Shown: positions 44,052 to 46,358 of the stretch, piece after piece
How the letters are laid out: every line of letters starts with the position of its first letter
How positions within the stretch are numbered: position 1 is the stretch's first letter
Source of the DNA: Gammaproteobacteria bacterium
Lineage (GTDB): Bacteria > Pseudomonadota > Gammaproteobacteria > Ga0077554 > Ga007554
Length of the DNA: 64,000 bases
Assembly: GCA_040183005.1 (NCBI GenBank)
Contig: JAMPIW010000009.1
Coordinates: forward strand, 50,876 to 114,875
Reading direction: 5' to 3'
Made by a program: the position numbers and the translations under genes
The notes under the pieces: generated by a model
What the model was told of the DNA's origin: nothing
Databases searched by the model: none
What the model saw: the letters and a program-made list of their open reading frames with translations, nothing else

Positions 44052-44472
44052 TTATCTTGCCAAGTTTTCGTGAAATCGGCAAAAATGGATAGAAAGCTTC
44101 ATCAGGAACATATAAAAACCTACCTGGCTCAACGTAAAGAGCTTGGCACGGTGTTTGTCCTGCATAAAAACTGGGGAAGGGATTGTGTGCAAATCGTCCA
44201 GGAGGGCTATATGCTCATCATCTAGCGCCCCACCCTTCGGCAAGTAAAAAATTGAAGTACTACGTTGTGCACGAATACTGTTTAATAGATCTTCAATCTT
44301 TTGCGGCGCCATCCCTTTGCCTTGCAGGACGTTTGTGTAATCTTTGAGGCGAACTAGCGGAGCAAAAGTGATTTTGGGTGGCAAGACACGTGCATTGCCG
44401 GGATCTATATCACAACTATTGGATAGGAGAATACCCTTGATACTGTCACGCGCACCATCATTAAAACGTAAG
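44052..44472 (-). pseudogene. 3' portion of a gene split by the IS66 insertion
   Basis: The reading frame continues without a stop from the IS66 right-flank fragment through the duplicated AACGTAAG into the track ORF 44052-44384 (...LPPKITFAPLVRLKDYTN...). Confidence 0.6.
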
Positions 44473-46183
44473 GTAACTACTCACTCCCTTCACACGAAAA
44501 ATAACTTAAAAATCTCTTGACAGGTTTTTTCTATCGAAAAAACCACTTCCTTATCTCGGTGTAAAATCTATTCTCTATTGCCGCTGGCAGGGGCTTTGAT
44601 CTCTTCAATGAGCCGCCTTGCCATTTCAAGTCGAAAAAACCATTTCAGCCTGATCTGACCGTTATCAGGGGGTCGAAAAATGCCATGTTATCCTTTGGCT
44701 ATTCCAAACGTATAGCCCCCCTTATTAATGGCAAGCCTAGACAAAACCTCGGTCAGAAACGAAGTCAGCCGGTTGAAAGCGGATTTTGAGCAGCTCAGTT
44801 GCGACGGTAAAGTGCCTCGCGAAACTCAGGTGCTTATGAATAGCATGTTCATGATGATGGAGCTGATGCTCTCCATTTTTCTGGAAAGAATAACCAAGAA
44901 AGACAGCCGCAACTCCAGCAAGCCCTCCTCCCAAACGGAAAAGGACGACTCCTCGTTGAGTCATCCGGGGAGCCAGGGTAAGGGGAAAAACGAAAACGGC
45001 GCCCTGCTGAAAAACACGCGCGTCAAAGAGAGTGTGACTCTTTCTAGAGTCCGCCTCTGCGATGTATGTGGCGAAGATCTGGATAATACGCCCTGTAGTC
45101 ACCATGAAAGACGGACGAAGATCGATATTGTTTTTGAGAAAGTCGTTGAGCATGTGGATGCCGAGGTCAAGCAGTGCCCGGTCTGCGATGCGACGGTCAA
45201 AGGGAAGTTCCCGGCGGATATGCACGGCCCGTTGCAATACGGCGATGGCTTAAAGGCCTTTGTCATCAATTTACTGGTGTCTCAGATGGTCGCGATCAAT
45301 CGCGCGCAAACGCTGCTGACCTCCATGATCGGTGTTGTGATCTCTGAAGCCACTCTTCTGGCTTTTGTGCTGCGGCTTCATCGTGCCTTGGAGCGGTGGG
45401 AGCAGCACGCCACCGCACAGCTGCTGAAAGCACCCTCTATGCATGTGGATGAGACCTCCTTGCGGGTGGATAAGCAAAACCATTGGATACACGTGTACTC
45501 CGCAGGGGAGATCACCCTCAAGTTTTTACATCGAAAACGGGGCACGGCAGCGATTTCGTCGATTGATATTATTCCGCGCTACGGTGGCGCCATTATCCAT
45601 GACTGTTGGTCATCCTACTTGTCCTATGATCACTGCTCTCACGGCCTGTGCGGCTCGCATCTGCTGCGCGAATTGACGTTCATTGTTGACGCCAATGACT
45701 ACGCCTGGGCGCGCCACATGAAACGCCTTTTACAGGAGAGCTGCGCCACCGTCTCCAGAAGCACGGAAAAGAGATTGACCGATGAAGCGCTGGCGCGGTT
45801 GCAAAAGCGCTACCGCACGATTCTCACCCGTGGCGAAAAAGAGCTTCCACCTATTCCCCAAAAGCCCAGCGGCAAACGCGGCAAACTCGCCAAGTCAGAT
45901 GCGCACAATCTGCTGGAGCGATTGCAAAAACATGAGGCATCCGTCCTGCTGTTCGCCAAAAACCCGCATGTCTCCTTCACCAATAATCGGGCCGAGCGTG
46001 ATTTGAGAATGTCCAAGGTGAAGCAAAAGGTCTCAGGCTGTTTCCGCTCAGAGATTTATGCTCAGGCTTATTGCCGAATATCAAGCTATCTGCAAACTAT
46101 GGCCAACAAGGGACATAATCCTCTTATTGCGATTCAAATGGCTCTCGCGGGTGAGGTCAACTTAATCGGGGGTGAGTAGTTAC
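44473..46183 (+). mobile_element. IS66-family insertion sequence with a single tnpC-like ORF
   Basis: TIRs GTAACTACTCACTCCC and GGGGGTGAGTAGTTAC. Flanked by the 8-bp direct repeat AACGTAAG at 44465-44472 and 46184-46191. Confidence 0.8.
44728..46179 (+). CDS. IS66-family transposase (TnpC-like)
   Basis: 483 aa with a zinc-finger Cys cluster (CDVCGEDL...CPVCD) and an IS66 DDE region. Confidence 0.85.
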   Translation: MASLDKTSVRNEVSRLKADFEQLSCDGKVPRETQVLMNSMFMMMELMLSIFLERITKKDSRNSSKPSSQTEKDDSSLSHPGSQGKGKNENGALLKNTRVKESVTLSRVRLCDVCGEDLDNTPCSHHERRTKIDIVFEKVVEHVDAEVKQCPVCDATVKGKFPADMHGPLQYGDGLKAFVINLLVSQMVAINRAQTLLTSMIGVVISEATLLAFVLRLHRALERWEQHATAQLLKAPSMHVDETSLRVDKQNHWIHVYSAGEITLKFLHRKRGTAAISSIDIIPRYGGAIIHDCWSSYLSYDHCSHGLCGSHLLRELTFIVDANDYAWARHMKRLLQESCATVSRSTEKRLTDEALARLQKRYRTILTRGEKELPPIPQKPSGKRGKLAKSDAHNLLERLQKHEASVLLFAKNPHVSFTNNRAERDLRMSKVKQKVSGCFRSEIYAQAYCRISSYLQTMANKGHNPLIAIQMALAGEVNLIGGE

Positions 46184-46358
46184 AACGTAAGATCTGAATA
46201 CTCGTCCATCCATCACCCTGCAACACATCGGCTGGATATAGCGTGCTGTAGTAATTGCAACTAGGGAACTCATTCAAAGCCTTGACCAAACCGTCTTTCT
46301 GATCTTGGGTCAGATAGTAAGGAATCTGTGTTTTAAACTCCTCAGCAGTAAAGCTCAT
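46184..46358 (-). pseudogene. 5' portion of the gene split by the IS66 insertion
   Basis: Starts MSFTAEEFKTQIPYYLTQDQ... The track ORF 46134-46358 runs into IS sequence after residue 55. Confidence 0.6.

Follow-up and report, generated by a model that had tools for sequence, protein, structure and literature searches.

A probably autonomous, single-gene IS66-family element of the ISBst12 group inserted in a 195-aa gene of a gammaproteobacterial contig

Introduction

Canonical insertion sequences (ISs) of the IS66 family, such as IS66, IS679 and ISEc8, are 2–3 kb long and have three genes, tnpA, tnpB and tnpC. Elements of the ISBst12 group are smaller (~1.35–1.9 kb) and have a single transposase open reading frame (ORF). 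Here we describe an IS in a 64-kb stretch of DNA from a Gammaproteobacteria bacterium (contig JAMPIW010000009.1). This whole stretch is called the window throughout. We are highly confident that positions 44473–46183 of the window are an intact, probably autonomous IS66-family element of the single-ORF ISBst12 group, inserted in a gene for a 195-amino-acid (aa) protein.

The described comparators are ISBst12 itself, the ISGka4- and ISGst1-family elements of Geobacillus, and ISDge4 of Deinococcus geothermalis. ISDge4 is an ISBst12-group element whose transposition has been observed. Its transposase has 449 aa, its ends are GTGACTACTCAGCA / GTAACTGCTCAGCA, its terminal inverted repeat is GT(G/A)ACT(A/G)CTCAGCA and its direct repeat is 8 bp long (PMC12898284). 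In the Geobacillus plasmid pHTA426, ISsaga identifies exactly one IS66/ISBst12 element (PMC8024623), and the transposase of the window element, used as a query, matches one place in that plasmid record.

The window element shares its plan with these comparators. All have one transposase ORF of ~450–485 aa in a length of ~1.6–1.7 kb, with ~16-bp imperfect inverted repeats starting GTAACTA(C/T)TCA and 8-bp target-site duplications (TSDs). The transposases conserve HVDETSLRV, HD, CxxHxLRE and NNxAERDLRMxKVK. The right terminal inverted repeat (IRR) of the window element matches that of the ISGst1-family element at 14/16 positions. Still, the window transposase is only ~33% identical to those of Geobacillus, and the element exceeds the Geobacillus elements by ~80–100 bp and has a conserved leader of 255 bp. 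Members of its clade occur in environmental Gammaproteobacteria and other metagenome-assembled genomes (MAGs), and not in Bacillota or Deinococcota. With the canonical IS66 group the element shares the DDE_Tnp_IS66 domain, GTAA ends and an 8-bp TSD, but it lacks tnpA and tnpB and is 1.7 kb rather than 2–3 kb long. Canonical TnpC is distant, with no plasmid tblastn match above 40% identity.

Results

Element boundaries and target-site duplication

The element and its ends are as follows.

44473..46183, plus strand: complete insertion sequence, 1711 bp, GC 50.9%; homology with the independent copies L001/L002/L003 and L014 starts and stops here
44465..44472, no strand: left copy of the TSD, AACGTAAG (8 bp), within target-gene codons I56-L57-R58-F59
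46184..46191, no strand: right copy of the TSD, AACGTAAG (8 bp), by reading of the sequence
44473..44488, plus strand: left terminal inverted repeat (IRL), GTAACTACTCACTCCC, with T at position 13
46168..46183, minus strand: IRR, GTAACTACTCACCCCC, as read on the minus strand

The initial annotation had placed inverted repeats flanked by an identical 8-bp sequence, AACGTAAG, at 44465–44472 and 46184–46191, and each of these positions proved exact. IRL and IRR match at 15/16 positions, and their common 16-bp form is GTAACTACTCAC(T/C)CCC. Both begin with GTAA, the 5' start that is a trait of the IS66 family, as is a TSD of 8 bp or, occasionally, 9 bp. The 8-mer occurs only twice on both strands of the window. 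Likewise, the inverted-repeat pattern, with up to 3 mismatches allowed, has 2 matches in the window (chance expectation 0.22), and these are the two ends of the element. Identity of two given flanking 8-mers by chance has a probability of 4^-8, or ~1.5e-5.

A single transposase gene

One gene occupies most of the element.

44728..46179, plus strand: transposase gene, 483 aa, with its stop codon within the right inverted repeat

The 483-aa protein matches Pfam PF03050 (DDE_Tnp_IS66) with E 2.7e-41 and 142.3 bits against a cut-off of 23.1, over profile positions 3–283 of 284. NCBIfam NF033517 (transpos_IS66) gives 244.3 bits against a cut-off of 180, over positions 11–386 of 387. The protein thus passes both curated transposase models, as expected of the IS66-family membership first proposed for it. 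More than 5000 transposase homologues were found, mostly of 479–483 aa and often on contigs of ~1.7 kb, as would result from a repeat that breaks assemblies and is collapsed in them.

Four blocks stand out in the protein: HVDETS (D241, DET), IIHDCW (D292, HD), CGSHLLRE (CxxHxxRE, C308–E315) and NNRAERD (E423). C308, H311 and R314 are candidates for the CxxH-xR block of the family, situated between the second D (D292) and E423. By motif inspection, D241, D292 and E423 are the candidate catalytic triad. Two CxxC pairs, starting at C111 and C150, lie further toward the N terminus, and together they presumably form a zinc finger. The Pfam scan (E <= 0.01) returned PF03050 alone and no further domain, despite these two pairs. 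The Geobacillus relatives keep all four blocks and the second CxxC pair; the first pair is CxxxC there.

No tnpA or tnpB was found in the element, and it has no other sense-strand ORF of at least 90 aa. The sole other ORF of at least 90 aa is antisense and lies inside the transposase gene. The 255 bp from IRL to the ATG are non-coding. The non-coding leader and the lack of a second sense ORF indicate that the element has neither gene, which bears out the earlier reading of a lone tnpC-like transposase. Genes neighbouring the element are unrelated.

Two blocks of the leader are candidate control sequences.

44517..44522, plus strand: TTGACA within the CTTGACAGG block, ~45 bp from the left end; invariant columns 44–52 of alignment A2
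44686..44694, plus strand: TGtTATCCT, extended -10-like, 34 bp 5' of the ATG; invariant columns 212–222 of alignment A2

The CTTGACAGG block is almost invariant in copies down to 60% nucleotide identity. Its role may be that of a -35-like element or of a subterminal site for binding, and TGtTATCCT may be part of the transposase promoter. The leader also holds a repeated motif at 44534–44545, 44631–44642 and 44673–44685, twice in the identical form TCGAAAAAACCA and once as the variant TCGAAAAATGCCA. The last of the three overlaps the conserved -10-like block and is discernible even in copies at 60% identity. The repeats may be binding sites for the transposase or a regulator.

Related copies in other genomes

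A scan of species-representative genomes gave 35 loci. Twelve full-length relatives have 60–97% nucleotide identity, lengths of 1685–1716 bp and termini GTAACT(A/G)CT(C/T)A. One intact ORF is present in 9/12; in the other three (L014, L016 and L021) the transposase ORF is disrupted.

Three Logan SRA metagenome contigs (L001–L003) carry elements 96.5% identical in nucleotides to the window element, and the limits of homology are the proposed termini. A leader indel lengthens their ORF to 496 aa. L001, the sole contig of these three that is flanked on both sides, has its own 8-bp TSD, GATTTTTG. A fourth close copy, L014, lies at 2747–4455 in a groundwater gammaproteobacterial MAG. It has 96.9% nucleotide identity and a 9-bp TSD, TATTGAATA; its transposase gene is frameshifted and broken into ORFs of 210 aa and 297 aa. 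These four elements are 1709–1711 bp long and have the same ends at different insertion sites and with different TSDs. They are copies of the same IS as the window element.

The same element boundaries are flanked by their own 8-bp TSD in six independent copies. Besides L001 these are L005 (TGAGAATC), L007 (GATGGCCG), L008 (GATCAATC), L011 (ATATTTGT) and L016 (GTTTATTC), and their TSDs are mutually unrelated. In one MAG, MFD03804.bin.1.232, four copies are 99.2–99.9% identical to one another, which indicates that the clade of the element is mobile. Three of the four have distinct 8-bp TSDs and one has none. The copy without a TSD is L010 (2763–4447), and its state suggests recombination between copies.

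Assignment to the ISBst12 group

We compared the transposase with 72,556 plasmids by tblastn. All matches belong to the IS66 family and none reaches 40% identity; they come mainly from Bacillus, Deinococcus, Geobacillus and cyanobacteria. The best named matches are 'IS66-like element ISGst1 family' on pGS18 and 'ISGka4 family' on pHTA426, with 33% aa identity, 87% coverage and E ~1e-54 to 2e-54. Each is a lone transposase gene. On pHTA426 the element spans 1635 bp; its ends are GTAACTATTCAGCCCG / GTATCTATTCAGCCCA and its 8-bp TSD is AACTCGTC. The element on pGS18 measures 1613 bp and is flanked by the 8-bp TSD AAAAGAAC; its ends are GTAACTATTCAGCCAC / GTAACTATTCACCCCA. The Geobacillus elements thus have ends GTAACTATTCAGCC... 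against GTAACTACTCACCC... in the window element; the ends of the ISGka4-/ISGst1-family elements are also given as GTAACTATTCA....

The elements agree in architecture, size class, TSD length and most terminal bases, which supports assignment of the window element to the ISBst12 group, a placement that derives from sequence comparison. The single-ORF subgroup named in the initial annotation therefore stands: the 12 relatives fall within 1685–1716 bp, the nearest named elements are the single-ORF Geobacillus elements, and the ends of ISDge4 are alike. At 33% identity the element is distinct from its named relatives and is probably new and unnamed. No named element above 40% aa identity was found in the plasmid, genome and protein collections searched. 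Under ISfinder convention, the element would be given a new name.

'IS66 family transposase' loci of E. coli, Agrobacterium vitis and Photobacterium were considered as three-gene comparators; none has an annotated tnpA or tnpB. Two PLSDB loci, L041 (1579–3008; E. coli OXA-181 plasmid) and L044 (1693–3149; Photobacterium plasmid), have annotated IS66 coding sequences whose lengths are not multiples of three and which are out of frame past the N terminus, and they were dropped for this reason. The broken frame suggests frameshifted genes or ribosomal-slippage annotations.

The interrupted gene and its empty site

The element splits a minus-strand gene into two parts.

46184..46358, minus strand: 5' part of the target gene, codons 1–58, which now continues into the IS to give a 74-aa ORF (46134–46358)
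44052..44472, minus strand: 3' part of the target gene, codons 56/59–195 and stop

When 44473–46191 is removed in silico, 46358–46192 joins 44472–44052 in a 588-nucleotide minus-strand ORF of 195 aa. The reading frame is thus restored without a break, as had been predicted. Full-length homologues of the restored protein number more than 1200; they have 195–200 aa, and the best is 84% identical. Its alignment with 29 homologues is gap-free across the insertion point. Neither half of the gene contains a stop or a frameshift, and both keep all family-invariant columns. With its first 58 codons cut off from the rest, the gene is almost certainly inactivated. A 110-aa hypothetical protein, M3A44_15510 (P0231, 'MAG: Gammaproteobacteria bacterium'), is 99% identical to the 3' fragment. 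The product of the neighbouring gene is 100% identical to a protein of such a MAG, from which the window most likely derives.

An empty-site allele had been proposed as a check on the insertion, and a homologous unoccupied locus was found. L004, the contig of the 84% homologue, has 85% nucleotide identity on both sides and a single copy of the target (...ATTAAAACGTAAAATTTGAAT... / ...CATCATTAAAACGTAAAATTTGAAT...). The single target copy and the flanking identity indicate an unoccupied homologous site. An identical allele was not recovered, and the protein search gave no uninterrupted target allele above 84% identity. Exact-sequence searches with the transposase and with the 110-aa fragment returned no contig, and the single 1.5-kb contig reached through the TIGR04255 protein of the source genome ends before the insertion site.

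A three-gene cassette with a predicted toxin fold

The target gene is the last of three compact minus-strand genes, which encode a TIGR04255-family protein, a protein of ~110 aa and the target protein of ~196 aa. The other two are listed here.

46691-47437, minus strand: gene for the TIGR04255-family protein (NCBIfam 97 bits, cut-off 30)
46369-46698, minus strand: gene for a ~109-aa protein, the middle gene of the cassette

The same three genes occur in the same order in four other contexts. These are L004; an element carrying AAA_25 and phage-capsid genes, where the cassette is at the end; a Thiobacillus genome, where the cassette stands alone amid housekeeping genes; and Pelovirga, where it follows a P4-like primase and has a type I restriction system nearby. 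Pfam and PADLOC gave no match to the three cassette proteins. In PHROG, each of the three has matches, to families whose function is unknown.

The AlphaFold model of the restored 195-aa protein has a mean pLDDT of 83.6. It matches known toxin folds, among them phage PemK/MazF-like proteins in a Foldseek search (E ~8e-4) and, more weakly, CptN, AbiQ and ToxN. From this model, a MazF/CcdB/PemK toxin fold is predicted for the ~196-aa protein. The model of the TIGR04255 protein (pLDDT 87) is without an informative structural neighbour. PDB sequence searches with this protein and with the profile of the target family returned nothing.

The cassette lies in a low-GC islet at window ~44000–47600, with 43% GC excluding the IS against a background of 57%. 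The islet is bordered by a bfd-like ferredoxin gene (43507–43707) and an unannotated 291-aa ORF (47961–48836). No tRNA gene or integrase was seen near it, and an Rfam scan of 43000–48000 gave nothing. TSDs of the clade have a mean GC of 33% (n=8). Set beside the islet at 43% and the background at 57%, this is a weak hint of an AT-rich target preference.

Other features of the window

A second, unrelated IS of ~1321 bp is present in two direct copies, 3472–4792 and 60763–62083, which are 99.9% identical. Its 388-aa transposase is of the DUF4372 + DDE_Tnp_1 (IS4/IS5-like) type, and its inverted repeats read CAGAAGTGTCCGG(T/C)AATTT. The 9-bp TSDs differ between the copies (ATGTTTGAT and ATTCTGATT). 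The two look like independent insertions and not a composite transposon. The two 388-aa ORFs, at 3.5 kb and at 60.8 kb, are transposases, and a reading of the pair as tuf genes was rejected. Self-BLAST also found an imperfect palindrome of ~200 bp at 49190–49387, 74% self-complementary over 206 columns.

Discussion

The single gene encodes a DDE-type transposase that would recognise the 16-bp terminal inverted repeats (GTAACTACTCACCCCC). In the proposed pathway, the transposase would join the ends of the element to a target cut with an 8-bp stagger (strand transfer), and repair of the stagger would leave the duplication of AACGTAAG. The insertion lies at codons 56–59 of the 195-aa minus-strand gene, in opposite orientation to it, and splits the gene.

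Several observations weigh against this reading. The two inverted repeats differ at one position, the 64-kb window holds one copy, and a scan of the element for sigma-70 consensus promoters found 0 sites. No identical empty-site allele was found: a degenerate 40-nucleotide junction pattern had 0 matches in the metagenome collection, and the best site is at 85% nucleotide identity. The catalytic triad leans on an IS66 DDE/CwAH-rR signature, which we take to be that of the family, and a PDB sequence search with the transposase gave no solved homologue. The lone copy, the one-base difference between IRL and IRR and the empty promoter scan would also suit a genuine IS66/ISBst12 element that is an old, immobile resident, as would the frameshifted transposase of the near-identical L014, which makes plain that decayed copies of the lineage exist. 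We consider such a resident improbable. The TSD is perfect at 8/8 positions, the 483-aa ORF is intact and of the usual family length, and the target halves are lesion-free, where long neutral drift would be expected to leave lesions. The T at position 13 of IRL is common to the window element and L014, while the other copies have C, which marks the T as a variant of the lineage rather than a sign of decay in the window copy. The recent insertion proposed at the outset agrees with the perfect TSD, the intact ORF and the undamaged target halves, although its age is not datable from these data. Its intact ORF and ends, and near-identical multi-copy relatives of which most have distinct TSDs, are indirect evidence that the window copy may be currently active.

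Two further origins were weighed against insertion of an intact single-ORF element. Canonical IS66 elements have tnpA and tnpB 5' of tnpC, where this element has 255 bp of non-coding leader, and a deletion derivative of a three-gene element that lost both genes could look like this. Such a derivation is very unlikely. The 12 relatives at 60–97% nucleotide identity are all single-ORF elements of 1.69–1.72 kb with the same IRL directly 5' of the conserved leader, and the best full-length named matches are the single-ORF Geobacillus elements, with all plasmid matches below 40%. The length of 1711 bp also suits the ISBst12 group and not canonical IS66, by the size ranges given above as general background. 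The least credible of the alternatives is an assembly artefact, in which a repeat was misplaced in a MAG contig and the 8-mers match by chance. The names of P0231 and P0241 do point to a MAG source, and assemblies often go wrong at IS elements. Yet a conserved 195-aa ORF comes back in frame once exactly the element and one 8-mer are removed, an outcome that a chimeric join would not give; a chance match of the 8-mers is rare (~1.5e-5), and P0231 fits the same interrupted structure. We therefore retain the insertion of an intact ISBst12-group element.

For the IS itself the finding carries little weight, since it adds one further member of an ordinary kind to the ISBst12 group. The element belongs to a large clade of 1.7-kb single-gene elements that circulate among environmental Gammaproteobacteria and further bacteria that are uncultured; their ends are nearly those of the Geobacillus and Deinococcus elements. 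For annotation of this genome, the flanking 'hypothetical protein' fragments should be merged as one pseudogene.

On the structural prediction, the IS has most likely inactivated a gene with a toxin fold that belongs to a mobile cassette not yet characterised. A more tentative and rather doubtful proposal is that the split gene is the toxin-like part of an undescribed three-gene module carried on prophage- or satellite-like elements and islets, a module that could act in toxin-antitoxin or anti-phage fashion as a new system. If this is true, the toxin of the module has been knocked out naturally by the IS in the window. A widespread cassette with a predicted MazF-fold protein is a possible toxin-antitoxin or defence module, and it may deserve testing as such.

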